From Escherichia coli (GTDB lineage Bacteria; Pseudomonadota; Gammaproteobacteria; Enterobacterales; Enterobacteriaceae): DNA of 64,000 nt. The translations under genes were made by a program, and so were the position numbers. The notes under the pieces were generated by a model. That model was not told the DNA's origin. It made no database searches and saw only the letters and a program-made list of their open reading frames with translations. Numbering within the stretch: the stretch's first letter is position 1; every line of letters begins with the position of its first letter. Shown in pieces: positions 13,845-47,050 of the stretch. The stretch lies in assembly GCF_041886205.1 (NCBI RefSeq), contig NZ_CP169029.1. One strand, written 5' to 3'.

Positions 13845-13920
13845 GGCCCTTTAGCTCAGTGGTTAGAGCAGGCGACTCATAATCGCTTGGTCGCTGGTTC
13901 AAGTCCAGCAGGGGCCACCA
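13845..13920 (+). tRNA. ileY: tRNA-Ile2 (anticodon CAT, lysidine-modified), ileY-type
   Basis: 76-nt cloverleaf ggccctttagctcagtggttagagcaggcgactCATaatcgc...ggggccacca with 7-bp acceptor stem and CCA end. Confidence 0.93.
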
Positions 13921-17913: not shown

Positions 17914-19215
17914 TTACGGGGAAAACAGGGGGAAGGACGATTGCCACTCACCTTCCACTAATGCCCCTGATTCAAGCTCGAAGGGCACACACCAGAGCGA
18001 TAAATGTTTATCAAAATGGAACACTGGCAACGGAGTATCAAAAAACTGATGACGTGGATATATCAGCATCATATTCCCCTTCCCTTGCAGATATTTTTGC
18101 CCATAAGCGAACATCTGATACAGATCAGCCTGGTTAATTTCATACTTTCTCAGGCTGTTATCAGCTCGGCTGTCTAACAGCTTCCATTTGGCATCCAGTA
18201 CCATTACCTGCTCACCTGTGATGAGAAAGTCAGGTTTAAGCATGAACCATTGTTGAGGAGCCCTTTCGCCAGCAGGTACATGATCTAACAAATAATGACG
18301 TTTTGCCTGCTCAATAAGCTGATAATCCCTCAGCAAAGATAAAGCCAAACTGCGCCCCACCCAGCATTCATATAATTTTTCCATCGGGAACAACAGCGAG
18401 ATCCCCTGATGCAACCCATGCTGAAAATCTGGATTCAGTTTTTCCAGAATAAGTTGGCACCATGGCTTGATGGCACGATAAGCATAGAGATATTTACCGT
18501 TGCTCCATTGCGCCAGAGGCTGCGTTGTACTGCCACAAATTGGCTCTATACCGTCCAGTTGGTGGCTCAACGTGTTCGCCTGTCGCCAGCTCTGCCCCTC
18601 TTTGGTCATTTTAAGCACCCAATTCAGGGCCGTACGTAACAGACGGTTTTCAACTCGCTGAGGTGAAAACTCCGCATAACGCACATGAAAGCGAGCATCT
18701 CTACCAGGAGGCTGTCTCATTTGTGCCGTGATGTTCAACTGACCACGGATAAAAGCGCTGTGCTCATCCTCAACAAGGTGGTAGTCGAACCGCAACCCTT
18801 TGTGTACCAGTTCGGTAAGATGCCGCAAGAACTCGCTGAAAATCCACTCATGCATCGGCTGGTTGCTCCGCTGCAATGCAGCCTGATTAACTTCTCGGGG
18901 TGTAATCCCCAATGAAGCGCTGAGCATTCGACGTAAAAGCTGACGCAGGGGGATTATCTCAGTTGGCGCTTCAAATGTGGTTTTGGGCAGAATTTCAATT
19001 GACTCGCCATTCGGGGATTGTAGATAACCGACATAGCTTCCCAAACGCAAAAACCGCTTCCCTTCTCGGCTGAGAATTTGAGAGGTACCACTCCACTTTT
19101 GTTGCAATTGCTCAAGCCAGGAAAAGGTTGCCTCAGAGACAATTCCCAAATCCATACTGGCTGTTTGAGAACTATCACAAGTCAGCAGAGCATATTCCCG
19201 GACCTGGATCATCAT
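17914..19215 (-). CDS. McrC-like PD-(D/E)xK nuclease subunit
   Basis: 433 aa; C-terminal PDF...VLDAKWK catalytic-type motif; start overlaps the stop of the upstream McrB-like gene. Confidence 0.7.
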   Translation of the reverse strand: MMIQVREYALLTCDSSQTASMDLGIVSEATFSWLEQLQQKWSGTSQILSREGKRFLRLGSYVGYLQSPNGESIEILPKTTFEAPTEIIPLRQLLRRMLSASLGITPREVNQAALQRSNQPMHEWIFSEFLRHLTELVHKGLRFDYHLVEDEHSAFIRGQLNITAQMRQPPGRDARFHVRYAEFSPQRVENRLLRTALNWVLKMTKEGQSWRQANTLSHQLDGIEPICGSTTQPLAQWSNGKYLYAYRAIKPWCQLILEKLNPDFQHGLHQGISLLFPMEKLYECWVGRSLALSLLRDYQLIEQAKRHYLLDHVPAGERAPQQWFMLKPDFLITGEQVMVLDAKWKLLDSRADNSLRKYEINQADLYQMFAYGQKYLQGKGNMMLIYPRHQFFDTPLPVFHFDKHLSLWCVPFELESGALVEGEWQSSFPLFSP

Positions 19216-21194
19216 GTGACAATACCCTGATAAGCTTCTACCGACGCGAAAGCACGTTCATTGATGCGAAAACGCCTGTCAGACAAGCTATCCGCAATAT
19301 CTTTCGGGAATAGTTCAGAGAATGACGGTAATTGTGCTGACTGTTGCAACAGGATAAAACGGTTTTCTTTCGCTTTTACCGAATCATTAAGCACCCAACC
19401 AATGCGCTCATAATCATCAAAGAAATACTCTCTCAGTAATGGAATGATTTTGTTCTGGAAGATGCTGGCCAGACAGGCTTCGCGGTCGGCATTATTTTCT
19501 AATTTTTTTAGTGGCATAAAGTAAGCATGGCCAATCATATGTTCACTATCCAGCAGCGCTTCGATCCGCTGATTAATACGCGTTAACAACGTTTCGACAT
19601 CAACACCGAACGCAGTGACCCCAGCTAACAGCTCCGGTCGTGCGGGCATTTCGGTAAAGCTAAAGCGTCGTCTTAGCGCCAAGTCCATTTGGATGAGTGA
19701 TTTATCCGCAGTATTCATCGTCCCAATGACATAAACATTTTGCGGTACTGAGAATGCTTGCTTTGAATAAGGGAGCATCAGCGACCGCTCATCATCGGCC
19801 CCTTGACGTTTGTCCGGCTCAAGAAGAGTAATAAGCTCACCAAAGATACGTGCTATATTACCGCGGTTGATTTCATCTATTATCAGTACATGTGGTAGAT
19901 CCTGACTATCGGCATTCTCAACAGGAGCCAGCAACTGAGTTAATTTTTCACGATCAATCGTCGTATCCTGCAACTCATATAGGGTCATCTGAGATAGTGA
20001 CTTGATGAAAATTTGCTCTTTAGGAAGGCTTGGGGTGTATGTTCTTAACCATTTAACTGAACGCATTTGATGGTAATACTCACGTTCATCATTGGGTAAA
20101 TAACTATACTCACCTGTAATCTCAGCTATTGCACGGAACTTATGATTTCCATCAGAGACGACGACTAAATCGCCATTCTTAATAATATTTTTAAAGGTAT
20201 TCACGGCAACAGCCATATAATTACTGGTGCCTTCCAATGACTGTTTTTCTGATGCAATCCGAGCTTTGACTGACTCATAGGTAGAGCAGTTACTAAAATC
20301 GATATCTTCTCCCCAACCTAGCAGGACATAATTGTTTGCCAGGCAGTCCTCATACACATCCTCTTCTCCGCCCATGGTATTACCCAGAGACATCTTCCAG
20401 ATCCGCCGACCTTTGAGTGAGATAGATTGTGTTGCACTCCCCTGAACTTTAACCCTGGCATTCAGGCACAGCTGTTTAAAAATACCATCCACAACTTCGT
20501 AGCGAAGCGCGCCCGATTTTTCATCAGTAGTTGCGCGAATCCCTTCGATAAAATCTTCATAGGAGAAGCTCTGATGGAAGGTGGTAAACATAATGCGCTG
20601 CTTTTCTACCAACGCCTTATAGCGTTCATTTACCAACTCCCGTAAGTCATTGCCATGATGTTCGAGCGTAGCCTGTTGGTACCACGTATTATCGGCAATT
20701 TTGACCGCCATTTCGGTGGTACTGTAGGTTTTACCCGTGCCGGGTGGTCCAAAGAGAATTTGGTTTAAGGGATACATTAACGATTGTTCCTTATTTTCGT
20801 TGTCTCTTTTTAGTCTGGGTTGGGTAGTTATAGATGGTTTACCACCCAGCAAAGCCACCAGCGTCTGCAACGCTTCAACGGATTCAACATCAGCCGCGAA
20901 ACCATATTGGGATGTACCGTTATCTTTCGGATAACGGCGGTAGCTGGTGCTTTTTACTTTTTCCCAAAGGCAGTGGATACCCGAAATGCGATCAATTTCC
21001 GCTTTTACGGCAAGGGTTTCAGGTGCAAGAACCAATGGACTCTTTTTAACCACGCCGTCCCGGCTGCGTTTGACATACAGATACTTTCCATTCCCGAGCG
21101 CATGTTCGGATGCATAGCTTGGCTCGAATTTTCCCGCCTCAAGCCGGTAACCCAATTCATTCAACGCCTGGTATATCTCGAAAGAATTCAGCAT
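19212..21194 (-). CDS. McrB-like AAA+ GTPase subunit with an unusually long insertion inside the AAA+ module
   Basis: Walker A ILFGPPGTGKTY, McrB-signature LIIDEINRGN and RRRF; about 285 aa between Walker A and Walker B; AAGGAG RBS before the ATG. Confidence 0.75.
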   Translation of the reverse strand: MLNSFEIYQALNELGYRLEAGKFEPSYASEHALGNGKYLYVKRSRDGVVKKSPLVLAPETLAVKAEIDRISGIHCLWEKVKSTSYRRYPKDNGTSQYGFAADVESVEALQTLVALLGGKPSITTQPRLKRDNENKEQSLMYPLNQILFGPPGTGKTYSTTEMAVKIADNTWYQQATLEHHGNDLRELVNERYKALVEKQRIMFTTFHQSFSYEDFIEGIRATTDEKSGALRYEVVDGIFKQLCLNARVKVQGSATQSISLKGRRIWKMSLGNTMGGEEDVYEDCLANNYVLLGWGEDIDFSNCSTYESVKARIASEKQSLEGTSNYMAVAVNTFKNIIKNGDLVVVSDGNHKFRAIAEITGEYSYLPNDEREYYHQMRSVKWLRTYTPSLPKEQIFIKSLSQMTLYELQDTTIDREKLTQLLAPVENADSQDLPHVLIIDEINRGNIARIFGELITLLEPDKRQGADDERSLMLPYSKQAFSVPQNVYVIGTMNTADKSLIQMDLALRRRFSFTEMPARPELLAGVTAFGVDVETLLTRINQRIEALLDSEHMIGHAYFMPLKKLENNADREACLASIFQNKIIPLLREYFFDDYERIGWVLNDSVKAKENRFILLQQSAQLPSFSELFPKDIADSLSDRRFRINERAFASVEAYQGIVT

Positions 21195-21223: not shown

Positions 21224-24200
21224 TTAAGCCCCTTTCAACATATCAAACACCACGCGGGCAAAGCCCTTCGCCAGTTCAGGATTAGAGAGGTATTGCACCA
21301 TCATCTCCTGCTGGGCGTCGTTGCTGTCCATCACGGCATCATCAATGGCTTTCGGGAAATCGCCCAGCATCGCCTGCTCACGCGTATTGTTCGCAATCTG
21401 GGTCATCACCGCCTGGTTTTCTGACAGCTTGTCGCGCACCGCGAAGGCATAATTGATCATGTCTTTATCGGTCAGATTATCGGTGACGAACAGCTCGTTC
21501 AGGCGCGCCAGGATATTCGACAGAAACTCTTCTTTCTTGTCTTTCGGCTTCGCCGTACCGACATCATTCCCCGGTGTGATTTTGTATTCTGCCGCATCTT
21601 CCTGCAGCTTCAGATGCTGTTCGTGGAGTTTCGACAGGCGATAATGGCTCATCTCCACGTTGCTTAAATCAATCTCATCTTCTTCGATACGCTGTTCATG
21701 CAGTAACGGGCGCAGGTGGCGGGCAAATAGGCTCAGTTTTTCCAGGTTCTTGTCGTCGTAATCGACGATTTGCGACATAAACTCGTAAAAGCGGACAAAG
21801 CTGCCGAGGTCTTTCTTGAAGATATCCAGCTTACTTTTTTCTTTCTCGCACTCTTTGAAGCTGTTTTCCGCATTGGTGATCAGCACAACATCGCCGGTCT
21901 TCTTAGTACGTTCGAAGATCGCTTTGGCCTTTACATACTCGTCAATCGCCGAGGTGTAACGCTGTTTCCAGCGCTGCACCGCTGGTTTGCAGATATTACT
22001 AATGGCCGCGTTGGATTTGTTTTTGCTGAAGAACGCTTCGCAGAACTGCTCCACTTCGTTCCACAGGAAAATACCGCTGGTACGCAGCTTTTCAAAGAGC
22101 TCAAAGACCTGTTGCGGGTCGCTGACATCCGTCAGTTCTGCTGTCTGGTAGTACGGCTGGAAAGCCCCCAAAATCTCGTCGGGCTCGTTGTAGAAATCGA
22201 GCACAAAGGTGCCTGACTGCGCCTTCCCCGGATAGGTACGGTTCAGGCGTGACAGCGTCTGTACACACTCCACGCCGCCAAGCTTTTTATCCACATACAT
22301 GGCACACAGCTTGGGTTGGTCAAAACCGGTCTGGAATTTGTTGGCCACCAGCATCACCTGGTAGTCGTCGGTATCAAACGCTTTGCGCATATCCCGGCCT
22401 TTCAGGCCTGGGTTCATATTGATTTCGGTGAACTTCTGGTTAAGCAATGCAAGGCTATTGTGGTCATCTTCATGGAACTCAACTTCACCGGAGAACGCCA
22501 CCATTGCGCTGATCTTGTCGTATTTTTGCTCGGCGATGTATTTATCGAATGCCAGCTTATAGCGCACCGCTGCTTTACGCGAACTGGTCACCACCATCGC
22601 TTTCGCCTGACCAGCCAGTAAGTGCATCACATGCTTGCGGAAGTGCTCAACAATCACCTTCACTTTCTGCGACACGTTATGATCGTGCAGCGATACCCAC
22701 TGGTTGAGTTTGATCTTGGCTTTCTTGCTGTCTACTTCCCGGTCAGGATCGTCCAGCTTTTGCAGCAGCTTGTACGCCACCTTGTAGTTGGTGTAGTTCT
22801 TCAGCACATCAAGTATGAAGCCTTCTTCGATGGCCTGACGCATTGAGTAAACGTGAAACGCTTCCGGTTTGTTCGTTTTCGACGCCGGTTCCTGCGGATT
22901 AGGACGACGGCCAAACAGCTCCAGCGTTTTGGCTTTCGGCGTGGCGGTAAAGGCGTAATAGTTGAGATTGTTGCTGCCTTTACGTGCGGCGACGGTGGCA
23001 TCCAGAATATCTTCTGAAGACATCTCCACATCGTCATCCGCTTCTTCGGTCATAAGCACTTCTTTCAGCTGACGCGCCGTAGAACCACTCTGCGAGGAGT
23101 GCGCTTCATCGGCAATCACCGCGTATTTGCGCTGCTTGAGGCTGACGCTGTTTTCAATCGCCTTCAGGACAAACGGGAACGTCTGGATAGTGACGATAAT
23201 GATCGGCTGCGAGTTTTCCAGCGCGCTGGCCAGCTTCTCCGATTTAGAACCGTCGCCTTCTTTGTTATTGATCCGCCCGACCACGCCATCCTGATGCTCA
23301 AACTGATAGATGGTGTCCTGCAGCTGATCGTCAAGCACGGTGCGGTCCGTCACCACAATCACCGAATGGAACTGCTTCTCGCCATTTTCATCATACAGGC
23401 GGGAAAGCTGATGGGCCGTCCAGGCGATAGAGTTAGATTTGCCCGACCCGGCACTGTGCTGAATCAGGTATTTATTGCCGGTGCCTTCCACTGTGGCGGC
23501 GGTGATCAGTTTATTCACCACATCCCACTGGTGATAGCGTGGGAAAATCAGGCTCTCACTTTTGTACTTCAGGCCAATGGCATCTTCTTTTTCTACGATT
23601 TGCAGATGCACGAAGCTCGCGAGAATTTTCAGCAGATTGTCCGGCAGTAGCACCTCATTCCACAGGTAGCTGGTGGCGTAGTCGTTGGCATCTTCCGGGA
23701 TATCGTTCCCCGCACCGCCGTCATGGGTGCCTTTGTTAAACGGCAGGAAGAAGGTTTTATCGCCCTCGAGTTTGGTCGCCATAAACACTTCGTACTGGCT
23801 GACGGCAAAGTGCACCAGCGCGCCGCGTTTAAAGGTCAGCAGCGGCTCGGGTTTATTAGTGCCTGGGTCCTTTGGCAAACGCGTTTTCTTATATTGCGTA
23901 ATGGCGTTTTGCACCGTCTGCTTAAATTCAGACTTCAGTTCCAGGGTCGCTATCGGCAGGCCATTAACGAACAATACCAGGTCGATACGCCATTTCTTCG
24001 CTTTTATACCGGTATCTTCAAATGCGGCGTTCGATGCATGCGGGCTGTAAACCAGCTCCGGCACGATGCGGCAGATATTCTGTTTATAACGAGCCAGTGT
24101 TTCCGGATTGAGGTTATGTTCCGGCTTAAACTGGCACAGAGAAAAACGCGCGTTATGGCTTTTGATACCATGTCGCAGCACGCCTAAAGTGCCATAGGTG

Positions 24201-24472
24201 CGCGAAAGCATATCAGTAGCGTTGATGTCCGCTTTTTTCAGCTGCGCCACCAGCGCATCGAGGAAATGACGTTCGGTATCGGTAGGGTAAATTTTGGCAA
24301 ACTTCTCCCACTCCTGCGGCTGTGTGGTCTGCACAAAGGTCAGCACATCCTGGGAATACAGCGCACGTTCGCGATCATAGCCGTCAGTTTTGCCACAAAT
24401 CCAGCCTTTTGCTTTCATCTGAGCAATCATTTCGTTCTGGAAGATAAGCTCTTTGGTGCTGTCCATGCTCAT
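21224..24472 (-). CDS. hsdR: Type I restriction enzyme R subunit (HsdR)
   Basis: 1082 aa; N-terminal PD-(D/E)xK (IDLVLFVNGLPIATLELKSE), helicase motif I HSAGSGKSNS, DEAH box VIADEAHSSQ. Confidence 0.88.
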   Translation of the reverse strand: MSMDSTKELIFQNEMIAQMKAKGWICGKTDGYDRERALYSQDVLTFVQTTQPQEWEKFAKIYPTDTERHFLDALVAQLKKADINATDMLSRTYGTLGVLRHGIKSHNARFSLCQFKPEHNLNPETLARYKQNICRIVPELVYSPHASNAAFEDTGIKAKKWRIDLVLFVNGLPIATLELKSEFKQTVQNAITQYKKTRLPKDPGTNKPEPLLTFKRGALVHFAVSQYEVFMATKLEGDKTFFLPFNKGTHDGGAGNDIPEDANDYATSYLWNEVLLPDNLLKILASFVHLQIVEKEDAIGLKYKSESLIFPRYHQWDVVNKLITAATVEGTGNKYLIQHSAGSGKSNSIAWTAHQLSRLYDENGEKQFHSVIVVTDRTVLDDQLQDTIYQFEHQDGVVGRINNKEGDGSKSEKLASALENSQPIIIVTIQTFPFVLKAIENSVSLKQRKYAVIADEAHSSQSGSTARQLKEVLMTEEADDDVEMSSEDILDATVAARKGSNNLNYYAFTATPKAKTLELFGRRPNPQEPASKTNKPEAFHVYSMRQAIEEGFILDVLKNYTNYKVAYKLLQKLDDPDREVDSKKAKIKLNQWVSLHDHNVSQKVKVIVEHFRKHVMHLLAGQAKAMVVTSSRKAAVRYKLAFDKYIAEQKYDKISAMVAFSGEVEFHEDDHNSLALLNQKFTEINMNPGLKGRDMRKAFDTDDYQVMLVANKFQTGFDQPKLCAMYVDKKLGGVECVQTLSRLNRTYPGKAQSGTFVLDFYNEPDEILGAFQPYYQTAELTDVSDPQQVFELFEKLRTSGIFLWNEVEQFCEAFFSKNKSNAAISNICKPAVQRWKQRYTSAIDEYVKAKAIFERTKKTGDVVLITNAENSFKECEKEKSKLDIFKKDLGSFVRFYEFMSQIVDYDDKNLEKLSLFARHLRPLLHEQRIEEDEIDLSNVEMSHYRLSKLHEQHLKLQEDAAEYKITPGNDVGTAKPKDKKEEFLSNILARLNELFVTDNLTDKDMINYAFAVRDKLSENQAVMTQIANNTREQAMLGDFPKAIDDAVMDSNDAQQEMMVQYLSNPELAKGFARVVFDMLKGA

Positions 24473-25791
24473 GCGGTGGCCTCCTGTGGCTCCTCAGCGT
24501 CCTGCGTGTCAGGTGCTACCCAATCACGGACGTCGATTTTTCCGGTGACGGCAGCGGAGATCAGGGCGGTACGGCGTTCCTGGAGAATTTGAATAGTCTG
24601 CTCGACCATTTCTTGAGTTATTTGTATTTTGTCTATCTTTTCCAGTACTTTTTTTGCCAGATAAACCTGATCATCAAAAGGAATATCTCTCACGTAAAAA
24701 TTACTAATTTGCTCTGGACTAATATGCGGCACACTAACACCAGTCAAGTCTATTTCAGCATATTCTCTGAATTCATTGCTACTAAGACATAATTTAATAA
24801 ATGGTTGATATGATTTTATATTTGACCTTATCCTTGCAACTCGCTGCAATAAGAGGCAAGGTAAATCCTGCTCTTTAATTTCTGAAACCCTTGCTCCAGA
24901 ACTAATCCATGGTCTATCCATACCAAAAACAATATCGCCAGCCGCTAATAAATAATCACTGAGCCTATCGAGTGTTCTAACATCCCAATATACAACGTCA
25001 TCCCATTTTATGCTGTCAACACCGACATTAACCCCTCGTAAAAGAGGAATACTATTATCAGGTGAAAATTTAAATTTTGTACTTGAAAATGGATAGCCAG
25101 TTTGAATACTAACTAAGTTTTTTAGCTTAGTTTTCCTCTCATTACTACGTATACTGGCGACACTTGAGATCACGGCCTGACGCTTTTCTTTAAGTAGTTC
25201 AATTAGTTGCTGTTGCTTCTCGATCAGGTTATCGATTTTTGCAGTTTCGTGATCGAGGAAACTGTATATTTTTTCCTGCTCAGTCTTGTCTGGAAGCAGC
25301 AGCTCAATATTTCTAAATTCATCAGGATCCAGATCCCATTGATTGACTCGTATCCCCTTGGAGCGGCTCAGATATTGAGTAACGTAAATCGGGTTGCGAA
25401 GTAAATAATGCACATACCTTGGATGTGCCAGTTCAAAAAGGACATTGTTGGGTTTATAGACAAAATATGCCGGACTAACTATCCCTTCATACTCTGAAAT
25501 TGCGATTGAACCTTGCCAGGCTTTCATCTTATTCATAACCAAATCATTTGGCTCAACCAATTGATAGGGGGACAAATCCTCTGAAGGCTTATTATTGTTA
25601 TCATCTCTGCTTGATTTTGGTATAACACCATAGTCCCGATATACGGAAAGCAATTCTTTCTCTGTATATCCGGTCCGCTTGATCCTGGAAAACAATCTGG
25701 ATATGGATACGGTTTTCCAGTGATTCGGAATCTCCCCCAACCACTCAACCCCAGAATCCTTATACTCCGGATACATCTTATACTTCGCCAT
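24469..25791 (-). CDS. hsdS: Type I restriction-modification specificity subunit (HsdS)
   Basis: 440 aa with two target-recognition-domain-like halves separated by a coiled-coil-like spacer; overlaps hsdM stop and hsdR start. Confidence 0.8.
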   Translation of the reverse strand: MAKYKMYPEYKDSGVEWLGEIPNHWKTVSISRLFSRIKRTGYTEKELLSVYRDYGVIPKSSRDDNNNKPSEDLSPYQLVEPNDLVMNKMKAWQGSIAISEYEGIVSPAYFVYKPNNVLFELAHPRYVHYLLRNPIYVTQYLSRSKGIRVNQWDLDPDEFRNIELLLPDKTEQEKIYSFLDHETAKIDNLIEKQQQLIELLKEKRQAVISSVASIRSNERKTKLKNLVSIQTGYPFSSTKFKFSPDNSIPLLRGVNVGVDSIKWDDVVYWDVRTLDRLSDYLLAAGDIVFGMDRPWISSGARVSEIKEQDLPCLLLQRVARIRSNIKSYQPFIKLCLSSNEFREYAEIDLTGVSVPHISPEQISNFYVRDIPFDDQVYLAKKVLEKIDKIQITQEMVEQTIQILQERRTALISAAVTGKIDVRDWVAPDTQDAEEPQEATA

Positions 25792-28175
25792 CAGGAATGT
25801 ACCTCCCGCAGCAGCTTCATAATCTCGGTACTGACTGCATCCAGATCGGCATCAATCTCTTCCAGTGGGCGCGGCGGCTGATAGACGTAGAAATGGCGGT
25901 TAAACGGAATCTCATAACCGACAATTCCCACCTCACCATCTTTCGCATCACGCTTATCGGCGTTGATCCACGCATCATTTACATGCGGCAGCACTTCTGC
26001 TTTGAAGTAGTTTTCGATCAGGTCGCTGGTCGACATTGCCGGGTTCAGCGGCACGTTTTCGTTATCGCGCAGCTCGCCGTCCTGTTCGAACTCAACAACC
26101 TTGCCTTTGTACTCAAACGCACCGTACAGCGGCTGAGCGGCTTCTTTCAGCACCTTCTTCACCACCGGCTCGGCATCCGGGTTTTTCGTGGTAATGGCAT
26201 CGATAAACTGCTTGTTCTCTTTCGCATCCAGCTTCACGCCAGCCGTTTTGATGGCCCCTTTCAGGGTCAGTTGGAACTGATTGAAGTCATTGCTCACCCG
26301 CGTTTTGCCACCCGCCTGCGCACCCAATACCACCTGAATCTGCTGTGCTTTTTCCATGAACTCGCGCTGTGCCAGCCACAATTTGCTGTCGAGCAGGTCT
26401 TTAATCTGCTTCTCTTTCAGCTCTGCAAATTCGGCTTTGATGATGGCGCGCGCTTCGGCTTCCAGTTCGGAGAAATCACCATAGCTGTCCTCCCTCCACT
26501 GGGATGCGAACTCTTCATACAGGCGTTCCATTGGCGCGTTAAACGGCTTCGGCGCAAAGCGCAGAGTCGCAATCGCTTCATCAGTCACCTGTGCAGATAA
26601 CCGCAGCGGGCGCTCAATGGTCAGGCGGCGATAGCCAAAGTCGGTGCTGTTAAAGATTTTGCTGGCGAAGGTTTTCGGAGCTTCGGTTTTGGCCATGGCA
26701 GGCTGACGGCCACGGTTGGATTTTTGCTCGGCGGCTTTTTCCAGACCCAGTTCTTCCAGGGCTGTGACATCCACCACCTGAAAATCACCGAAGGTCTGCG
26801 TGATCAGTTTGATATCGTCTTCGCCCATCAGGTTGCGCTTGGAACCCAGCGATTTACGCATTTTGCCGCACAGGTTAGTGCCATCAATCAGCTGTACTTT
26901 TCCTTTACGCTCAGGCGCTTTCTTGTTGGAGAGGATCCAGACGTAGGTGGCAATACCGGTGTTGTAGAACATATCTGTTGGCAGCGCGACGATGCCTTCC
27001 AGCAAATCGGCTTCCAGAATGTAGCGACGGATTTCGCTCTCACCGCTGCCCGCACCACCAGTAAACAGTGGAGAGCCGTTAAGGATAATCCCGATACGTC
27101 CGCCGTTGCTCACGGTGCCATCCACATTGTGGTTGTCGCGCATTTTGCTGATCAGGTGCATCAGGAACAGCAGCGAGCCGTCGGAAACACGCGGCAGGCC
27201 CGGGCCAAAGCGACCGTTAAAGCCCTTTTGCGTATGTTCGTCGTTAATCTCGCCCTCAATCTTCTTCCAGTCCACGCCAAACGGTGGGTTAGACAGCATG
27301 TAGTCGAATTGATCCAGCGGTAACTGGTCGTTAGAGAGGGTGTTACCCAGCTTAATGCGGCTGACGTCCTGACCTTTGATCAGCATGTCGGCTTTACAGA
27401 TAGCGTAGGATTCCGGATTCAGCTCCTGACCAAAAGCGCGCATCACCGCGTTAGGGTTCAGCTCGTGCACATATTCCATGCCCGAAGAGAGGAAACCACC
27501 CGTCCCGGCCGTCGGGTCATAAATGGTGCGGATGATACCAGGCTGCGTCAGGGCTTCATCATCTTCCATAAACACCAGTGAAGTGGTCAGACGCACGATA
27601 TCGCGTGGGGTGAAGTGCTCACCGGCGGTCTCGTTAGATCTTTCCGCGAAACGACGGATAAGTTCTTCAAACACCAGGCCCATCTCATAGTTGGAAATCG
27701 CTTTCGGGCTGAGATCGGTGGTGGCGAATTTCTTCACTACTTTGAACAGCAAGTTGGCGTCTTCCAGCAGGCCGACGAACTCACTGAATTTAAAATGCTC
27801 GAAGATTTCACGCGCATCGGGCGAGAACGACTGGACGTAATTCTCCAGGTTGGCTTTGATGTCGTTCTGCCCCATCTTGCCAAGATCCATCTTCGAGGTG
27901 TTGAAGAAGGAAAGCTCGCTGGCGCGCAGCAGAAACTTCTCTTTGGCATCTTCCGGCAGCGTGCTGGTTTTTAATTCATCATATTTCGCCACCACCGCAT
28001 CTTTGGTCTCCGCCAACACACACTCAAGACGGCGCAGCAGCGTAAAGGGCAGGATCACGCGCCCGTACTGAGACTGTTTGAAATCACCGCGCAGTAGATC
28101 GGCCACCGACCATATAAACGCAGCCGTTTGAGAAAAGTTAGTGTTAGTCATAAGCGACACCCAAAAAAATGGCAT
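25791..28175 (-). CDS. hsdM: Type I restriction-modification methyltransferase subunit (HsdM), long form; alternative start at 28151
   Basis: N-terminal HsdM_N-like region ([37 protein letters not shown]), NPPF catalytic motif, about 250-aa C-terminal extension. Confidence 0.82.
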
Positions 28176-28358
28176 AAAAAAGTGGCAAGATTATACCCCA
28201 TCAGGCATAAGATGCTTTGACTTATAACGCATCAGTTTGAAACACAATGGTGATGGGGGTCACAGGGGCTGACATGTACTTTTAAGATTAAAAAGCATTA
28301 ACATCTACTTTTGAAGAAAACAGAAAAAAACAATCACAAACCTTTAAAAACAAAAACT

Positions 28359-31300
28359 ATGCCAATTATTAATAAAAAGTATCAAGAGCTTCAGTTAACA
28401 GATGAGTACATTACCGATCCACTGCTCATGGCCCTAGCCTGGAAGAAAAGCCATCACTACATACGTACCACAAATTGGTATGCTGACAACTTTGAACTAG
28501 ACCTGTCGGCTTTGGACCTAATGCAGCACTGTAAAGATTGGGTCAAGAGAATGCAGGACAAAAAAGAATTTAAATTTTCAGAGCTACAACTTGTTCCTGT
28601 ACCAAAAGCCTGTAAATGGGAGTTTAAGACTGTCGAAAATAAGGTTCTATGGCAACCTTGTGATGAAAAAGAACTTACCCTACGCCCCCTTGCCCATATA
28701 CCCATAGCTGAACAAACCATCATGACATTAGTCATGATGTGCCTAGCCAATACAATAGAAACCAAGCAAGGAAACCCAGACACCAGCTATGACATCGTCC
28801 ACCAGAAAGGTATCGTCAATTACGGAAATAGACTTTATTGTCAGTATATTGACGATAAAGCAGAGCACAGCTTCGGTGCAACAGTGACATATAGTAAATA
28901 CTTCACTGATTATCGGAAATTTTTAAATAGGCCTTATCATTTTGCGTCAAAAGCGCAAGGTGAAATTTCGCCGGACGAAGCCGTTTACATCATAGAACTA
29001 GATCTTGCGAAGTTTTTCGATTTAGTAAACAGGAAGACTCTAATTCAAAAGATAAAAAACCATATCAGTGAGTCAATAAACAATAAAGAAAACCCACTCG
29101 CCAATCATTTATTTAAATGTTTTGCAAACTGGGACTGGACTGCATCTAGCATAAAAAATTATGACATATGCAAGTCAGACGAAGTAACAGAAATACCAAA
29201 AGGCATCCCTCAAGGATTGGTTGCAGCAGGGTTTCTATCAAATATTTACTTACTTGAATTAGATCAATTCTTGCATAATAAAATTAACACAGACATAACT
29301 GATGACATTAAATTTGTTGATTACTGTCGATATGTCGATGACATGCGATTTGTGGTTAAGGTTAAAAAATCAAAAAATAATAATACCGCATTCATAAATG
29401 ATGTAATAACCAATCTTCTTAAAAATGAGATAGATAATCTTGGACTGATAATTAATCCTAAAAAAACAAAAGTAGAAATTTTTAGAGGCAAATCCGCAGG
29501 CATCTCGCGTAGCTTGGAAAACATCCAGACCAGATTAAGCGGCCCAATATCAATGGATAGCGCCAACGAACAACTTGGGCATCTTGAGTCATTATTAAGT
29601 CTGACAAAAACCGATTTTGAACCACCGAAAAATGGTAAATCAAATAGATTAGCTGAGATTGAAAAAGACCGTTTCGATGTCAGGGAGGACACTCTTAAGC
29701 GCTTTTCTGCCAATAAAATCAGTAAGATACTAAAAGAGTTAAGACATTTCATCTCGCAGGATATAGATACTGATGGGGAGGTTATTGCCGGGGAATGGGA
29801 TTATCTGCAAGAACGTTTGGCACGGCGTTTTATTGTCTGTTGGAGCCATGACCCGTCACTGGCACTGCTACTCAAGAAAGGGCTGGAACTTTTCCCTGAT
29901 CCTAAGCTATTAGACCCTATACTTGAACAGCTTTGCTCACTCATTGAAAGCGATAATGAAAAACAAAGTGCAGTAGCTACTTATTGCCTTGCTGAAATAT
30001 TTCGACATTCAGCAATGACTATTCATAAAAAAGACACCTATGCATTCCCTGCACAAGCCAATGTGGATGGGTACTTTGAAAAAATACAACATTGCGCCGC
30101 GACATTCATTAATAAGCGCAGCGCCTCTGACAACGAAACTTGGAACCTGTTAATTAATCAGGCTAGTTTTCTGTTGCTTGTGCGTTTAGATAATACATTA
30201 GAAAAAAATGGCACTGATGCCAGGCATGATCTTATCTTAAAACTGGCATCAGGCTTTAGAACAATTACACTTCCCACTAAAATGGATAGCAAGACTATAG
30301 CCTCATGTATTTTGTTGGCTAGTCAATTAGTTAAAGATAACAAACCATTTATTCGCTCCTGCGCTTCTTTGTGCGAAAGAATTTATGACAAAGAACACGT
30401 CATAAAATTGAAGAAAATAGTTAGCATAATATCACATCAAAACTTATCATTGTTTAAATCCTTAGTTTATCATTCACGACCTTTACAACAGAAGTGGCTA
30501 AACTCAGACTCCGTGAAAATAATAATTAATGAATGCCATATAGATATACAACCTTTGGCGACTTCTTTAGGCATGATAAAAAGTAGTCACTCATTACTTA
30601 GAATCATATCAAGACCTGATAACCCATTTGCCAATGAGATAATGGCATTAAAACTGATGCAAGCCCTTTTATTGGACAGGATTGTTTGCCTGGATAATAA
30701 AAAAGATTATCAAATAAGTGTAGCAAACACCAAAGTGACGTTTCATAACTACTCCAACCCTCCAACATCGAATGTCTTCGATGCAGGAATGGATATGGAT
30801 GCAAAATTATTCAAATCATCGGGATGGGTCGATTCTATTTTCACGGATGATGCAGACACTCAAATATTGTATAGAGTTGCCATGTGCATCCGTTCAGTAC
30901 TACTCGGCAAACAAGACTGGACAGATTTTGGTCAAGCAATTTCCCCCAAACAGGGTTATCGGGGTATTAAAACTAGTAGAGACAAACGTCAATTGGGGAT
31001 GATGACAACACCTGAGTCCATTGCCGGTGAGAACTCTCAGGTTTCTGGTTGGCTTACCACACTCTTATCCAAGTTGCTTGCCTGGCCGGGAATTTCAGTG
31101 GGTGATAATGGATATCAATGGCCAGCAATTTTTACAGTAGATGCTGTCAGAAAACTAGTTGATGCTCGGCTGAGTAAACTTAAGCAGGATTACTGCAAAC
31201 TATCAGGAACTCCGGGACTTACAGAAAAAATACAGTTCAACTGGTCTGACTCGAAAAAAGCCCTAACAGTTGCTATGGTCCAGTCAAAACTGCCTGCAAC

Positions 31301-32135
31301 GAAAGATTTTGTCAGCCATGGACTTCTTTTAAACTCCGCAAAGTATAGAGTGATTCATCGCAGACATGTTGCTGAAGTGGCTGATTTAGTTGTAAAACAC
31401 ACGCTTGCACAAAAAACAACTCAACGAACTCATGGTGAAAAAATAGAGAACATTGATTTAATAGTATGGCCTGAGCTCGCTGTACATAGTGACGATTTGG
31501 ATGTACTCATCGCCTTATCTAGAAAAACGAATGCAATCATATACTCGGGCCTGACATTTATTGAGCAACCTGGAATCAAAGGACCAAATAATTGTGCCGT
31601 TTGGATTGTCCCACCTAAAAGCAATAGCAGCCAGAAAGAAATGATAAGACTTCAAGGCAAGCATAATATGATGGAAGATGAGAAAGGCCGGGTTGAACCC
31701 TGGAGACCATACCAATTGATGCTTGAACTTGTTCACCCCCAATTTACTGATAAAAAAGGATTTGTTCTCACAGGCTCCATTTGTTATGACGCAACCGACA
31801 TCGCGCTAAGTGCAGATCTCAGGGATAAATCAAATGCTTATCTTGTAGCAGCATTAAACAGGGATGTTAATACATTCGATTCCATGGTTGAAGCACTGCA
31901 TTATCATATGTACCAGCATGTTGTGCTCGTTAACTCAGGGGAATTCGGAGGATCTTACGCTAAAGCACCTTACAAGGAGCCGTTTAATCGTTTGATTGCT
32001 CATGTTCATGGCAATGATCAGGTAGCTATAAGTACGTTTGAAATGAACATGTTTGATTTCCGTCGTGATAATATAGGAAAAAGTATGCAATCCGGGTTAG
32101 ATAAAAAAACTGCTCCTGCAGGAATCATAATGTAA
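28359..32135 (+). CDS. Reverse transcriptase-nitrilase fusion, defence-associated RT type 1 (UG1)-like
   Basis: RT motifs GIPQGLVAAGFLSNIYLLELD and YCRYVDDMRFVV (YVDD); C-terminal carbon-nitrogen hydrolase motifs IVWPELAV and LTGSICYDATD; start trimmed from the TTG-initiated ORF 28311 to ATG at 28359. Confidence 0.75.
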   Translation: MPIINKKYQELQLTDEYITDPLLMALAWKKSHHYIRTTNWYADNFELDLSALDLMQHCKDWVKRMQDKKEFKFSELQLVPVPKACKWEFKTVENKVLWQPCDEKELTLRPLAHIPIAEQTIMTLVMMCLANTIETKQGNPDTSYDIVHQKGIVNYGNRLYCQYIDDKAEHSFGATVTYSKYFTDYRKFLNRPYHFASKAQGEISPDEAVYIIELDLAKFFDLVNRKTLIQKIKNHISESINNKENPLANHLFKCFANWDWTASSIKNYDICKSDEVTEIPKGIPQGLVAAGFLSNIYLLELDQFLHNKINTDITDDIKFVDYCRYVDDMRFVVKVKKSKNNNTAFINDVITNLLKNEIDNLGLIINPKKTKVEIFRGKSAGISRSLENIQTRLSGPISMDSANEQLGHLESLLSLTKTDFEPPKNGKSNRLAEIEKDRFDVREDTLKRFSANKISKILKELRHFISQDIDTDGEVIAGEWDYLQERLARRFIVCWSHDPSLALLLKKGLELFPDPKLLDPILEQLCSLIESDNEKQSAVATYCLAEIFRHSAMTIHKKDTYAFPAQANVDGYFEKIQHCAATFINKRSASDNETWNLLINQASFLLLVRLDNTLEKNGTDARHDLILKLASGFRTITLPTKMDSKTIASCILLASQLVKDNKPFIRSCASLCERIYDKEHVIKLKKIVSIISHQNLSLFKSLVYHSRPLQQKWLNSDSVKIIINECHIDIQPLATSLGMIKSSHSLLRIISRPDNPFANEIMALKLMQALLLDRIVCLDNKKDYQISVANTKVTFHNYSNPPTSNVFDAGMDMDAKLFKSSGWVDSIFTDDADTQILYRVAMCIRSVLLGKQDWTDFGQAISPKQGYRGIKTSRDKRQLGMMTTPESIAGENSQVSGWLTTLLSKLLAWPGISVGDNGYQWPAIFTVDAVRKLVDARLSKLKQDYCKLSGTPGLTEKIQFNWSDSKKALTVAMVQSKLPATKDFVSHGLLLNSAKYRVIHRRHVAEVADLVVKHTLAQKTTQRTHGEKIENIDLIVWPELAVHSDDLDVLIALSRKTNAIIYSGLTFIEQPGIKGPNNCAVWIVPPKSNSSQKEMIRLQGKHNMMEDEKGRVEPWRPYQLMLELVHPQFTDKKGFVLTGSICYDATDIALSADLRDKSNAYLVAALNRDVNTFDSMVEALHYHMYQHVVLVNSGEFGGSYAKAPYKEPFNRLIAHVHGNDQVAISTFEMNMFDFRRDNIGKSMQSGLDKKTAPAGIIM

Positions 32136-32428: not shown

Positions 32429-33736
32429 CTATCTCTGCCCAAACAGGTTAACGACATTGTTTTCCTGCTGTTGCTGGTGGTTATTCACCCGAGACTCCCA
32501 GATCTCGAGAGCCTTACGCTTTTCAACCAGGTAATCGTAACGATCGTAGTGTTTAGAACTCACATCCTGTAGAGCATGGTTCTGAATGCGGTCACGCAGG
32601 TCTTTAGCAATACCCGCTTCGCCCATCAGGGTCTTACAGGTACGACGAATATCACGCGCAATAAAAGATGGGCTCAACGCAAAGTGTTGCCGGTAATAAA
32701 TGATGGCTTGTGCAAAGCTGTCTGTGCGTAGATGCTGTTCCGGTTTAATACGCTGCGGGAAGATGTAAGGACTCTGACTATGATTCTCAGCTTTCAACTT
32801 TTCGAGTATCTCAATGGCTGACTCAGTCAAAGGCACCAGATGATCCCTTTTATTTTTCGACACATCCGCCACTATCAATAACGTTTTTTCTTCCCAGTTA
32901 ACGGCATCCCAACGGCTGGAAACCAGTTCATGAGGCCGCTGGCCACCCGTATAGACACACAAGTTAAGCAATTGGCTGATTAACGGGCCGACCTTTGGTG
33001 CTTTAGGGAAATCCCCCATCAGTTGCTGCAACTCATCCAGCTTCAGCCAGTTTGTCCCTGCCTTCTCCGCTGCAGATTGTTTGGGTATGACACTCACTGG
33101 GTTCATTTGAAGCCCAAACATCACGTTCTGCTGGTGGTTTGCCGGATCGTTGTCAGCCTTCAACCCATAATTGAATGCTGCCATCAGATAAGAGCGAACA
33201 CGATTTGCTTCAACTGATGCGCCACGTTTAATAATGGTGGCCAGAATTTGTTTGATATGAGCGGGGATAACGTCACGCGCTTTCGTCGCTTTAGGTATAA
33301 ATGGATAGGTTTCTTTTTCCAGCCGGTACAAAACCTGTTGCCAGGTGCGTTTACCGTCTTCACGCATTTTGGTGGTGTAACCCAAAATGAGTTGCTCAAT
33401 GCTGCCTTTGAGCTGGTCTTCACGTTGTTGTTGTTCGGCAGAGAAAAGCTGCTCTGCGATTTCAGCTTTGGGGTCTTTCCCTTCTTTAAGAAGACCCGCA
33501 TGTTCTTTACATTGCTGTCTTGCCTGCGCGAGTGACAACTCTGGGAAACGGCCAAGCAGAATGAATTGCCGTTTTCCTTGCCAAAAATAACGATAGTAAA
33601 ATACTCGCTGACCCGATGGCTCAACTTTCACCCCTAATCGCCCTGCCCCACGCTCACCACTTTTATCCCATTCATAATAAGCAGTAGTCTTCGGCTTCAA
33701 GCCACTAATCATTGAGACAGTTAAATTATCAGCCAT
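32429..33736 (-). CDS. P4-type tyrosine integrase of the ileY island
   Basis: N-terminal arm-binding-like domain (MADNLTVSMISGLKPKTTAYYEWDKSG...RVFYYRYFWQGKRQ); start trimmed from ORF 33838 to ATG at 33736; adjacent to attR. Confidence 0.82.
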   Translation of the reverse strand: MADNLTVSMISGLKPKTTAYYEWDKSGERGAGRLGVKVEPSGQRVFYYRYFWQGKRQFILLGRFPELSLAQARQQCKEHAGLLKEGKDPKAEIAEQLFSAEQQQREDQLKGSIEQLILGYTTKMREDGKRTWQQVLYRLEKETYPFIPKATKARDVIPAHIKQILATIIKRGASVEANRVRSYLMAAFNYGLKADNDPANHQQNVMFGLQMNPVSVIPKQSAAEKAGTNWLKLDELQQLMGDFPKAPKVGPLISQLLNLCVYTGGQRPHELVSSRWDAVNWEEKTLLIVADVSKNKRDHLVPLTESAIEILEKLKAENHSQSPYIFPQRIKPEQHLRTDSFAQAIIYYRQHFALSPSFIARDIRRTCKTLMGEAGIAKDLRDRIQNHALQDVSSKHYDRYDYLVEKRKALEIWESRVNNHQQQQENNVVNLFGQR

Positions 33737-33758
33737 AGTATTTTTCAGTCCTTTGTTC

Positions 33759-33804
33759 GTTACGTCACCCAGTCTGATTCTGGGTGACGTAGTGGGTGAC
33801 GTAA
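33759..33804. repeat. Three GGGTGACGTA motifs (one inverted, two direct) upstream of the island integrase
   Basis: gttacgtcaccc ... tgggtgacgtagtgggtgacgtaa; same motif as 13977-14001. Confidence 0.45.
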
Positions 33805-33929
33805 GGATGATACTGAAGGTAAAAACGCAGAACAACATGAAACAACAACCAGCAAATAACCTACTGTTATTTATTAAATTTAATCTAACGTGAAAAAAGA
33901 TGCAAAATCATGAAACATGGATTTCATAT

Positions 33930-34731: not shown

Positions 34732-36081
34732 ATGTTAGTTAGTAAAAGCAACGAATTTAACACTAGCGCAGTTTTGGCTAGCAGGAATTATAATGAAAAC
34801 AATTCTTCCAACCCCATGGGGCTACTAGCTTATAGTATTTTAAATTTAATTTGTAAGGAAGCTGCCTCAGGGACGTACAACGGTGCTATTGAAATTTTAC
34901 AAAAAATGATGTCTGAATGTAAATATCAAGAAGGCAACGCCTTTGTCATTATGGGATCTGGAGAACAATTAAAACGTATTAAATATGATGTTGATGAAAA
35001 TAACTTAAAAGTATTCAACGTACACTTTAATAATAATGAAGAGTTAGTTACTGATGGTGAGCCTGACGTAGTATGTTTAAGCAAGCAGGAGTGGGAAAAT
35101 CTTCTCATTAAATTAAAACCGGAGATTAAAGAAAATGTGTTTTCTGAAAATAACAAATCATCGAGAGAAAATAATGTTGATCAGTATGTTCAATCCGCTA
35201 AAAGAAATGAACAGGCCCTTTTCGATAATATAATAAAAAGTGATTTTCATGTTGCTTCACTTCAGCCAGGTAGTACGCGTAGTGTTATTTCAGAAACGCC
35301 ACGAAATGTCTGTATGGAACCACGTAATTCCTATGAAACCAAAATAGATGAGATTTCATCTTTGTCAGAGTCAAAGGAACACTCCATAGATATTCAAGAA
35401 AAAACAGATGCGTTTGTGAATGAGTTCAAGGGGATATTATTTGATAAAAATGGAACGTCTTCAGAGTTTCTACTTAATTTTTATGAATGTTGCTATGAGT
35501 TTTTACCAAGAGCGCAGCCTCAGGATAAAATCGATAGCTATAATTCAGCACTGCAAGCTTTTTCCATCTTTTGTTCATCTACGTTGACACATAATAATAT
35601 AGGCTTTGATTTCAAATTATTTCCAGAAGTCAAGCTGTCTAGAGAACATCTTGAAACGGTATTCAAATACAAAAATGGCGATGATGTCCGGGAGATAGCC
35701 AAAATTAACATTACTCTCCAAAAAGAAGAGGGTGGTTTATATAATTTACGTGGATTAGATTTTAAGGGATGCTTCTTTTCTGGACAGAACTTCAGTAACT
35801 ATGATATTCAATATGTGAACTGGGGAACGTCATTGTTTGATCTTGATACTCCATGTATTTTTAATGCGCCTGCTTACAACAAGAGTAATGAAAAATCATT
35901 AGAACGCGTCAGCGAAAACGGTTTAAGTGGAGTCTTGTCTGATCGTAATAAAAAAATAAAACTCATCACGGGCGTGGCACCATTCGATGATATTTTATTT
36001 ATGGATGACGACTTTGATGATAGTTCCTCTGAGGATGATCCCGTTGAGAATAGTCCTGTTGTGACTAGTCCCCTTGTATAA
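34732..36081 (+). CDS. Hypothetical AT-rich protein (449 aa), possibly YpjC-like; acidic Ser/Asp-rich C-terminus
   Basis: Long clean ORF, low GC, Asn/Lys-rich; position equivalent to ypjC next to the ancestral ileY junction. Confidence 0.45.
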   Translation: MLVSKSNEFNTSAVLASRNYNENNSSNPMGLLAYSILNLICKEAASGTYNGAIEILQKMMSECKYQEGNAFVIMGSGEQLKRIKYDVDENNLKVFNVHFNNNEELVTDGEPDVVCLSKQEWENLLIKLKPEIKENVFSENNKSSRENNVDQYVQSAKRNEQALFDNIIKSDFHVASLQPGSTRSVISETPRNVCMEPRNSYETKIDEISSLSESKEHSIDIQEKTDAFVNEFKGILFDKNGTSSEFLLNFYECCYEFLPRAQPQDKIDSYNSALQAFSIFCSSTLTHNNIGFDFKLFPEVKLSREHLETVFKYKNGDDVREIAKINITLQKEEGGLYNLRGLDFKGCFFSGQNFSNYDIQYVNWGTSLFDLDTPCIFNAPAYNKSNEKSLERVSENGLSGVLSDRNKKIKLITGVAPFDDILFMDDDFDDSSSEDDPVENSPVVTSPLV

Positions 36082-36485
36082 AGTTCTAAAAGCAGTTTTC
36101 AATGATAAATAAATGGCTATTTTTACGAAGAGATAATAACGTAGATTGAAACAATATGTATTATTGATTGAGTAAACGGGATTATTATTCACACTACATC
36201 CATTTTAGTGTCACTACCAAAGAAAAAGGGGCTACGTTTTCATGTAACCCCTTGATTTATTTGGTGGGCTGGCAGTGACTGAATTGGTGCTGTAATTGGT
36301 TGAAATATTTCATCTAATGTCTGGTTTAACTTTCCTTAGCTGCCTGAAAGTTTTTTGATCTCACCCAGCAATAACAGCGTTACGGTGCACCACGACTGAC
36401 TGAAGAACTGCGTGCTCAGGGTTACCACTTCAACGTAAAACCGTGGCAGGAGGTCCGGACTGAAAAAACTGCTCAGGACATTATC

Positions 36486-36612
36486 GGCAGGGTACGCACT
36501 GGTAGTCTGTAAACTGAACCGACTGGGGCGCAGTATGTGGCATCTTGTCGTGCTGTTGGAGGAGCTGTGCGAACGTGGTATTAACTTTCGTGCTCTGGCC
36601 CAATCTATATTT
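36486..36612 (+). pseudogene. pinH: Serine recombinase (Pin/Gin invertase family) fragment, pinH-like
   Basis: Translation ...[37 protein letters not shown] matches the resolvase catalytic-domain motif; no intact N- or C-terminus. Confidence 0.6.
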
Positions 36613-37007
36613 GCCCAACAATGGGGGGACGGAAGCTGTAAAAGTAAAACAATCTGCGATCTCAGAGTTATTGTGTGATTTTTATGTGAGCAGAAGATAT
36701 TCATCAGAAACGATTATGTAAATCATTTTATTTTGCCGACTGCCTGATTGTCGAAAGAAAAGAATACGCCCGGGTTTCCTGAATAGATTGACTTTTTTAT
36801 CCAACCACACTTCAGCGCACTGCGTTTAAAAAATGCCTCATTCTTATGCGGAATATCATCATTTCATCATGATGTCTTTGATGAGCGGTGAACACAATAC
36901 ACTTGCGCTGTCTCTTCAGGATGAATCCCCTGGTCTGGTGCCTGTGGGCTGATGTTGCAGCAAAGCTAAGGTCGCTTAAACGCTACTCAGTATTCACTTT
37001 TCAGAGG

Positions 37008-41597: not shown

Positions 41598-41609
41598 CCA
41601 TCAACGAAA

Positions 41610-41640
41610 AAGCCCACATCTGTGGGCTTTCATGTTACCA
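41610..41640 (+). terminator. Intrinsic terminator after ypjA
   Basis: Hairpin aaagcccacatctgtgggcttt immediately after the stop. Confidence 0.55.
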
Positions 41641-41825
41641 GGAGCCGCGGCTCTTTTGCGTATCCTGTTTTGTCTCCTCACCGTCTGGTCGGTGTCCTGC
41701 TGAGGCTGCTAACTTCCTGTTTTTGTTGGTGTTGTCCTTACACCGTCCAATCATGATTGGGCTGGCGGAGTCTGAATAACATTTGCAACATAATGTTTTT
41801 ATTGTTTATTTTCCAATTCAACTTT

Positions 41826-41854
41826 CATTGGTATACCTAAGCGTATACCAATGG
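41826..41854. repeat. Palindromic GGTATAC-containing repeat at the left end of the P4-like element
   Basis: cattggtatacctaagcgtataccaatgg; close copy of cgtatacctaaacgtataccaat at 53200-53222. Confidence 0.5.
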
Positions 41855-41932
41855 CGATTTGTTGCAATGATTCCTGTGGTTAAGCGAACTTGTTGTTGAA
41901 TAGCTCACATCAAGAAAAAAACTTTTTTTACG

Positions 41933-42034
41933 GAAAACTGTTCACACTGTTCACTCGCCATTATTTGTCTTTAATTTCAATGTGATATACGGTGAATAGT
42001 CCGTGAACAGTGAACACTTTACTGTTCACTTTCC
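41933..42034. promoter_or_regulatory. Cluster of TGTTCAC/GTGAACA octamer iterons downstream of the primase gene, P4 ori-like
   Basis: ctgttcacactgttcac ... ggtgaatagtccgtgaacagtgaacactttactgttcac; resembles P4 type I iterons bound by alpha. Confidence 0.5.
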
Positions 42035-42079
42035 GGGATTTCAGGTAAAAAAAGACCGGCTGATGCCGGTCCGGGTAGG

Positions 42080-44413: not shown

Positions 44414-44424
44414 GGTGTTCTCCC

Positions 44425-44745
44425 TCAGTGCAGCGCCGGTGCGGTGATATGACGGGCGCAGAGTTCATCCATCACGGCCAGCCCGAGAAAGGACAGCGAC
44501 GGCGCGGCCTTGAGTGGTCCGGCTTCCATTAAATCTTCGAGCAGGGCACAGGCAATCTGACGGCCTTTTTCCTCGCCATGCTGGCGCAGGTAGAAGCCCT
44601 CCAGCTCGGTCGCAATGGCGCTTTCCAGCGTACTGAGCGTGAGCTGCGGGTAGCGGTGCTGACGTTCGCACAGGGTCAGCCATGCACAGGCCACGGCGCG
44701 GCGATAGAGCGCGGCGCGTAAGACGGGCGTTAATGGCTTTTTCAT
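44425..44745 (-). CDS. Hypothetical protein, 106 aa (same size and position as P4 orf106)
   Basis: ORF immediately upstream of the primase, start overlapping the upstream ORF stop. Confidence 0.45.
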
Positions 44746-45047: not shown

Positions 45048-45073
45048 ATTTTATTTTGGGGTGTCGTTTTTAA

Positions 45074-46944: not shown

Positions 46945-47050
46945 CAGTGAACAGTAGTGAACAGTTGGTGAACACTTTTCTCTCAACTGTTCACTCTTTA
47001 ATTTATTGTTTTATTTATATTTTTATACTGAGTGAACAGTAGTGAATAGT
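46945..47050. promoter_or_regulatory. Second TGAACAGT iteron cluster, P4 crr-like
   Basis: cagtgaacagtagtgaacagttggtgaacac ... caactgttcac ... gagtgaacagtagtgaatagt, about 5 kb from the ori-like cluster. Confidence 0.5.

Follow-up and report, generated by a model that had tools for sequence, protein, structure and literature searches.

The window analysed here is a stretch of 64,000 nucleotides (nt) of Escherichia coli DNA (RefSeq assembly GCF_041886205.1, contig NZ_CP169029.1), and the gene under study is hsdM, which encodes the methylase subunit of a type I restriction-modification (R-M) system. The gene is located at 25791..28151 on the minus strand and encodes 786 amino acids (aa) plus a stop codon, as judged from the open reading frame (ORF), the annotated start in a near-identical chromosome, the lengths of homologues and a match to the PADLOC model PDLC03029. 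It is followed on the same strand by hsdS (24469..25791, -; 440 aa), with a Methylase_S domain and a PADLOC Specificity_I match (E 4e-101), and by hsdR (21224..24472, -; 1082 aa), with ResIII, SWI2_SNF2, HSDR_N and T1R_D3 domains. The start of hsdS overlaps the stop of hsdM by 1 nt (TGATG) and the start of hsdR overlaps the stop of hsdS by 4 nt, and from their sequences the three genes apparently form an intact, translationally coupled hsdM-hsdS-hsdR type I R-M operon. As a gene, hsdM is a standard, previously annotated type I DNA-methylase subunit and is already known. Our interest lies in about 260 extra residues of its product, which are predicted to be no loose tail but a folded insertion that separates the catalytic domain from the C-terminal tail helix.

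The ORF list and the translation of the window showed one uninterrupted ORF of 794 codons with an ATG start on the minus strand at 25791-28175, and the plus-strand translation of the same interval was riddled with stop codons. An earlier note on this DNA had described the interval as a 794-aa subunit. Its ORF is real and uninterrupted, but it lies on the minus strand and a 786-aa product is likelier, the true start being most likely Met9 of the maximal ORF, at window position 28151. We prefer Met9 because the NCBI Prokaryotic Genome Annotation Pipeline (PGAP) places the start here in an E. coli chromosome of 99.9% identity (NZ_CP135595; WP_024199119.1), because among the 120 closest homologues a length of 786-787 aa (range 777-797) with the N-terminus MTN... 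is nearly universal, because PDB alignments of the ORF start at Met9, and because only 13 nt separate the first ATG from a TATAAT hexamer upstream of it (28189-28194). This lone hexamer was seen by eye, and a consensus promoter scan upstream of hsdM gave no match. Translation of the eight extra codons (MPFFWVSL; 28152..28175, -) is improbable, since they are missing from nearly all homologues and in view of the TATAAT position. Residue numbers refer to the 786-aa protein unless the 794-aa numbering is indicated.

The sequence makes it nearly certain that the protein is a working HsdM with conventional N-terminal and catalytic domains. Pfam HsdM_N (PF12161) matched residues 18-150 (794-aa numbering) with an E value of 1.1e-26, and N6_Mtase (PF02384) matched residues 165-469 (794-aa numbering) with an E value of 2.4e-55 over profile positions 6-279 of 311. 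The first match marks an N-terminal helical domain, residues 10-142 (27726..28124, -), which is also helical in the AlphaFold2 (AF2) model. The second marks a gamma-class N6-adenine methyltransferase domain, residues 157-461 (26769..27683, -), for which there are sequence and fold matches to the M subunits of PacII, EcoR124 and EcoKI. The S-adenosylmethionine-binding motif I, DPTAGTGGF, and the catalytic motif IV, NPPF, could be read in the translation, and G216, G218, G219, N288, P289 and P290 were invariant in the family alignment (A1). Residues 1-785 aligned with positions 1-660 of the 661 positions of the PADLOC MTase_I model PDLC03029 (E 1.4e-285, 947 bits); the runner-up MTase_I model reached 150 bits and covered residues 7-460 only. 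The match to NCBIfam TIGR00497 was 78.5 bits, under its cut-off of 242.75, and the protein is therefore not an 'equivalog' of classical HsdM.

The surplus over the EcoKI M subunit (529 aa) is about 257 aa, and the EcoR124 M chain has 520 aa, which bears out the earlier description of a long-form HsdM about 250 aa longer than the classical ones. The location and character given for the additional material have to be revised. It had been described as a Lys/Glu-rich, helical C-terminal extension that starts at about residue 540. However, similarity to all solved HsdMs already ends at about residue 455-461 (463-469 in the 794-aa numbering), Pfam gave no domain past residue 469 (794-aa numbering), and the last ~24 residues appear to be the usual terminal helix, which makes the additional material an internal insertion at residues ~462-762. 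The composition of residues 540-794 (K 9.0, E 11.0, A 10.6%, against 6.2, 6.8 and 5.5% in residues 1-469) amounts to a mild enrichment in Lys, Glu and Ala only. In the AF2 model a helical bundle was indeed predicted at 524-653, but it is flanked by beta elements at 494-520 and 654-746, and a single helix at 763-785 closes the chain.

The AF2 model was built from a 124-sequence alignment. The full-length prediction had a mean predicted local distance difference test score (pLDDT) of 92.1 and a predicted template modelling score (pTM) of 0.86, and residues 490-762 predicted alone had a pLDDT of 95.0. The full-length model matched solved HsdM chains over ~470-530 columns only, with a query-normalised TM-score of at most 0.46. 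Searched against Pfam and NCBIfam, the insert gave no match even at E = 10, and a phmmer search of the extra region against the PDB gave none either. The C-terminal 329 aa alone returned noise only from the PDB and Pfam (ribosomal protein L22, E 0.14; AmyA, E 0.05), and database fragments made up of the insert region alone carry no precomputed Pfam domain. The insert resembles no known domain: it belongs to no Pfam family, and the solved structures include no structural homologue of it.

Along the chain, the extra region starts with a low-confidence linker, residues 462-492 (26676..26768, -), with a pLDDT of 62-65. These 31 low-complexity residues are gapped in eight of ten aligned family members; in A1 the linker is substantial only in our protein and in P0242, its closest relative, a further two members have just 5-6 aligned residues in it, and the remainder are fully gapped. 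The following beta element 1, residues 493-520 (26592..26675, -), is conserved at 41-80% identity across the family, with F505, R514 and P515 found in 93-97% of sequences. The helical subdomain, residues 521-655 (26187..26591, -), was predicted with high confidence (helices 524-653 at pLDDT 94-98) and is variable in sequence. Its identity is 46% to P0242 and 16-30% to distant members (<50% identity), and 62-69 of its 135 residues are absent from family members of 644-662 aa. Conservation returns in a beta-rich element 2 with a helix, residues 656-740 (25932..26186, -; 40-59% identity across the family; net charge -7), which contains the motifs ExDxxLRDxENVPL and YFxxEVxPHVxDAWI and in which L694, D696, E698, E719 and W728 are conserved in 90-97% of sequences. 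Family conservation also defines the motif GYEIxFNRxFYxYxPPR, residues 741-762 (25866..25931, -), which runs into the terminal helix; G745, I748, F754 and R761 are conserved in 92-96% of sequences.

In the same family sequences the catalytic domain is 44-63% identical, compared with 40-80% for the core blocks of the insert, and therefore the constraint on the alpha/beta core is at least as strong. The alignments and the model together indicate that the helical part, 521-655, is a variable, dispensable excursion projecting from a conserved alpha/beta core (493-520 plus 656-762). The net charges of beta element 1, the helical part and the conserved core are +4, -3 and -7 in our protein, and the family medians are +3, 0 and -7, respectively. 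An acidic core favours protein-protein contacts and disfavours a DNA-binding domain.

The C-terminal tail helix (763-785), residues 763-786 (25794..25865, -), is presumed to dock on HsdS on the evidence of the AF2 helix, a coiled-coil match and natural M~S fusions. We read the extra region as an insertion because this helix is the sole candidate for the HsdS-docking tail. In the natural M~S fusions the HsdS part begins directly after the terminal helix; two of them, P0356 and P0306, carry a Methylase_S domain, and P0291 and P0326 read through. The C-terminal tails are needed for M-S assembly in PacII, where the tail helix bundles with HsdS (PMC9613975), and in the EcoKI model the C-terminus of M abuts the N-terminus of S (PMC3510504). 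More generally, the tail helix of type I M subunits forms with two conserved HsdS helices a four-helix bundle that is required for assembly (PMC9613975; PMC3510504). The fusion point after the 763-785 helix corresponds to the same geometry as described for EcoKI (PMC3510504), and by analogy the terminal helix probably anchors M to HsdS. When a profile of the GYEI-plus-tail segment was searched against the PDB, coiled coils were matched, but these were generic ones and no HsdM tail was among them, which gives no sequence-level equivalence to classical tails.

Some relatives have other arrangements after the insert. P0241 (1148 aa) and P0251 (1130 aa) keep the whole insert, and the docking tail right after GYEI is replaced by ~420 residues in which no Pfam or PADLOC match was found; possibly these are single-chain variants that bring a specificity module of their own. 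P0340 (715 aa) joins the C-terminal part of the long-M family (PDLC03029 positions 439-625) to a TniQ domain of the I-F CRISPR transposon type, which may be a real fusion or a gene-call artefact at a transposon insertion.

A search with the insert only returned 698 cluster representatives at 50% identity (E <= 1e-3), with 167 at E <= 1e-10, and a word-indexed search with the insert returned 3203 proteins. The matches are HsdM proteins or fragments, apart from the TniQ chimera P0340 and the two tail-replaced variants of ~1140 aa. Homologues of 89-96% identity occur in Klebsiella, Enterobacter, Cronobacter, Pantoea, Edwardsiella, Serratia, Yersinia, Xenorhabdus and Snodgrassella. The full insert was present in 116 of 5426 complete E. 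coli genomes, one at 99.9% identity to the window and 115 with another allele (~78% nucleotide and 81% amino-acid identity). In GF4-3, the genome inspected, this 81%-identical allele lies within the immigration control region (ICR), between yjiA and yjiS. A further 81 E. coli genomes have a medium form of 659 aa, which SMS-3-5, for one, carries in its leuX island. Relatives were also found on 807 plasmids, 522 of them from Klebsiella, such as an IncFIB plasmid whose M-S-R operon encodes an M of 675 aa; the same search found no relative in phage records. A 799-aa relative with 39% identity belongs to the M-S-x-R operon of an integrative element, and the gene order M-S-R or M-S-x-R recurs among relatives, the setting being a type I operon throughout. 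These sequence matches place the protein in a widespread 'medium/long-M' HsdM clade. Many further PADLOC MTase_I models are 700-930 positions long, and together with this wide distribution they indicate that long HsdMs are commonplace. The earlier note had considered that the extension might turn out to be a conserved feature of a well-characterised type I family with a known structural role; it is conserved in a very large HsdM family, but it has no known structural role, solved structure or Pfam family.

We propose that the protein is a working HsdM with an HsdS-anchoring tail and a structural insert at the junction, and we assign this overall mechanism a probability of about 0.6. By analogy with the characterised systems, the terminal helix 763-785 would form a four-helix bundle with two conserved HsdS helices and so keep M2S1 assembled. 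From its position in the chain, the inserted module would be located where the catalytic domain meets the HsdS coiled coil and could act there as a family-specific structural or assembly element, and it is plausible that it enlarges the M-S and/or the M-R interface. The earlier note had suggested a part in assembly or an additional function; the position beside the presumed docking helix, the conservation pattern, the charge and the absence of catalytic signatures all argue for a structural or assembly role. We do not think that the insert provides a second enzymatic activity or serves in DNA binding, since it has no Pfam or NCBIfam match and its core is acidic (net -7). As to where the material was added, in the family profile alignment beta element 1 pairs with the classical SEIAENDFNLNIARYV element of PacII M1, and the addition would therefore lie after this element, or after the end of the catalytic domain, and ahead of the tail. 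Two observations weigh against the proposal. By eye, the GYEIxFNRxFY motif resembles a second copy of the SEIAENDFNLNIARYV element, which leaves the insertion point ambiguous, after residue 461 or after 520, and the insert is conserved to the same degree as the catalytic domain, which exceeds the need of a passive spacer.

Conservation of the core at this level would also suit a module on which HsdR docks, or a regulatory module that times the engagement of HsdR, as might happen in restriction alleviation or when anti-restriction proteins are sensed; such a module would affect restriction and not methylation. The acidic conserved surface is suited to protein-protein contact, hsdR is a constant companion of the long-M family, and a segment of the partner HsdR (residues 999-1080) matches a separate PADLOC family, PDC-S15. 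However, an extra domain is in principle unneeded for docking, since in the solved EcoR124I complexes (7BST-7BTR) HsdR docks on standard M and S elements; these entries matched only the N-terminal ~480-520 columns of our model. We consider this explanation unlikely. We are similarly doubtful of a broader version, in which the ~270-residue insert would be an undescribed, autonomously folding domain with its own function in the clade and not a passive scaffold, perhaps an interface for HsdR engagement connected with restriction alleviation or with how DNA-mimic anti-restriction proteins are resisted or sensed. The basic beta element 1 (net +4) could instead point to an extra DNA-contacting clamp, possibly with a winged-helix-like subdomain, that closes the methylase round the DNA or touches flanking DNA. 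This seems quite improbable, because the helical part is neutral and the core acidic (-3 and -7 in our protein, 0 and -7 as family medians) and the putative winged-helix region falls in the least conserved segment. Finally, the length could be an artefact of fusion with a downstream gene, read-through or gene decay, with a non-functional extra region. The unusual length and the probably spurious first eight codons of the maximal ORF are all that speak for it. The 120 closest homologues, nearly all of the same 786-787 aa and all 89-96% identical, come from many genera, the insert is found in 698 clusters, its fold is predicted very confidently, the essential C-terminal tail comes after it, and hsdS and hsdR are intact and translationally coupled. 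Conservation and structure prediction effectively refute this explanation.

The operon is part of a larger group of defence genes. At the other end of the operon, the HsdR segment 999-1080 (21224-21470, -) matched the PADLOC candidate family PDC-S15 with an E value of 7e-11, which suggests that the C-terminal ~80 residues of HsdR are a module in common with an uncharacterised defence candidate. Directly downstream of hsdR, at 17914-21194 (-), is a McrBC-like pair consisting of a 660-aa AAA_5 ATPase and a 433-aa McrC. The N-terminal region of the McrB-like ATPase, at ~265-408, matched the PADLOC candidate PDC-S02 and not the McrB DNA-binding domain. The block of five genes, hsdM-hsdS-hsdR plus the McrBC-like pair, is also present in E. 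coli GDSC2227PM. Upstream of hsdM and divergent from it, at 28311-32135 (+), is a gene for a 1274-aa reverse transcriptase-nitrilase fusion, which matched PADLOC Drt1a (E = 0, 1396 bits) and RTasNitrilase. Judged by these matches, a type 1 defence-associated reverse transcriptase (DRT) gene adjoins the type I system.

The edges of the island are marked by a tRNA gene with a CAT anticodon (13845-13920), which ARAGORN assigned as Met and PGAP, for the homologue, as tRNA-Ile, and by a tyrosine integrase gene (32429-33838). In the chromosome, the E. coli gab operon and recN/ffh/yfjD flank the island. These features point to a tRNA-linked defence island of ~20 kb. The near-identical hsdM block was found in one of the 5426 complete E. 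coli genomes, where IS1 lies upstream of hsdM at the position that DRT1 has in the window. A second mobile region (34732-53695) extends up to the tmRNA gene (53333-53695) and encodes a DUF5507/DUF5508 protein, a 1569-aa AIDA/pertactin autotransporter with 10 AIDA repeats and a 777-aa P4-like primase-helicase.

For genome annotation the result changes little, since the gene is a standard, annotated methylase subunit in a defence island. Its significance is that a large and clinically common type I clade, which includes E. coli ICR alleles, systems on Klebsiella IncFIB plasmids, and members in Vibrio, Serratia and Yersinia, carries a well-folded, uncharacterised domain that has no structure, Pfam family or assigned role. 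The mechanistic models of type I enzymes were built on the short subunits of EcoKI, EcoR124I and PacII, and therefore do not describe the assembly and regulation of the long-M clade.

Among solved structures, the best match to the window HsdM is M1/M2 of PacII, a non-canonical type I system (PDB 7VRU/7VS4; phmmer E 1.5e-30, profile 7.4e-56, Foldseek 8e-23). The two have in common the N-terminal domain, the catalytic domain and the terminal tail helix, but the PacII M subunits are 499-504 aa long, are 23-24% identical and have no counterpart of residues ~520-760. HsdM of EcoR124I/II (type IC, PDB 7BST-7BTR) has the same domain order, with similarity over residues 21-465 (E 3.3e-21), and with its 520 aa and 18-21% identity in the structural alignment it is without the insert. 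The gene order of EcoR124I, hsdM-hsdS-hsdR, is the same as in the window. Although the gene order matches, the distant similarity speaks against assignment to type IC. HsdM of EcoKI (type IA, 529 aa) is 27% identical over residues 130-404 only, with none outside the core, and the gene order is hsdR-hsdM-hsdS in K-12 (EcoKI) and UTI89, compared with M-S-R in the window. The core-limited identity and the different gene order rule out type IA. The 1-nt hsdM/hsdS overlap with translational coupling is common to EcoKI (PMC3510504) and the window operon. Type IB systems have a smaller HsdM and a longer HsdS than the other families (PMC3510504), and an HsdM of 786 aa with an HsdS of 440 aa does not fit this pattern.

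The enteric ICR has been reported to contain only IA, IB and ID systems (review PMC12707154, Table 3). Since the 81%-identical ICR allele belongs to neither IA nor IB, elimination leaves type ID, the family of StySBLI, EcoR9I and KpnAI, as its probable label. This assignment conflicts with the statement that IA, IC, ID and IE subunits have 'roughly equivalent lengths' (PMC3510504). GmrSD in the ICR was considered as a marker of type ID and was rejected, since UTI89 has GmrSD together with a type IA system, and the names of the cluster members are all generic and gave no ID or IE label. KpnBI (type IE) also has a long M, with an hsdM of 2631 bp (876 aa) and a one-base overlap with hsdS. Further relatives for comparison are the medium forms of 659-675 aa in the SMS-3-5 leuX island and on the Klebsiella IncFIB plasmid. 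Unlike the window HsdM, they are without about half of the helical subdomain and without the 462-492 linker, but they share with it the PADLOC family, the beta core, the GYEI motif, the tail and the M-S-R operon.

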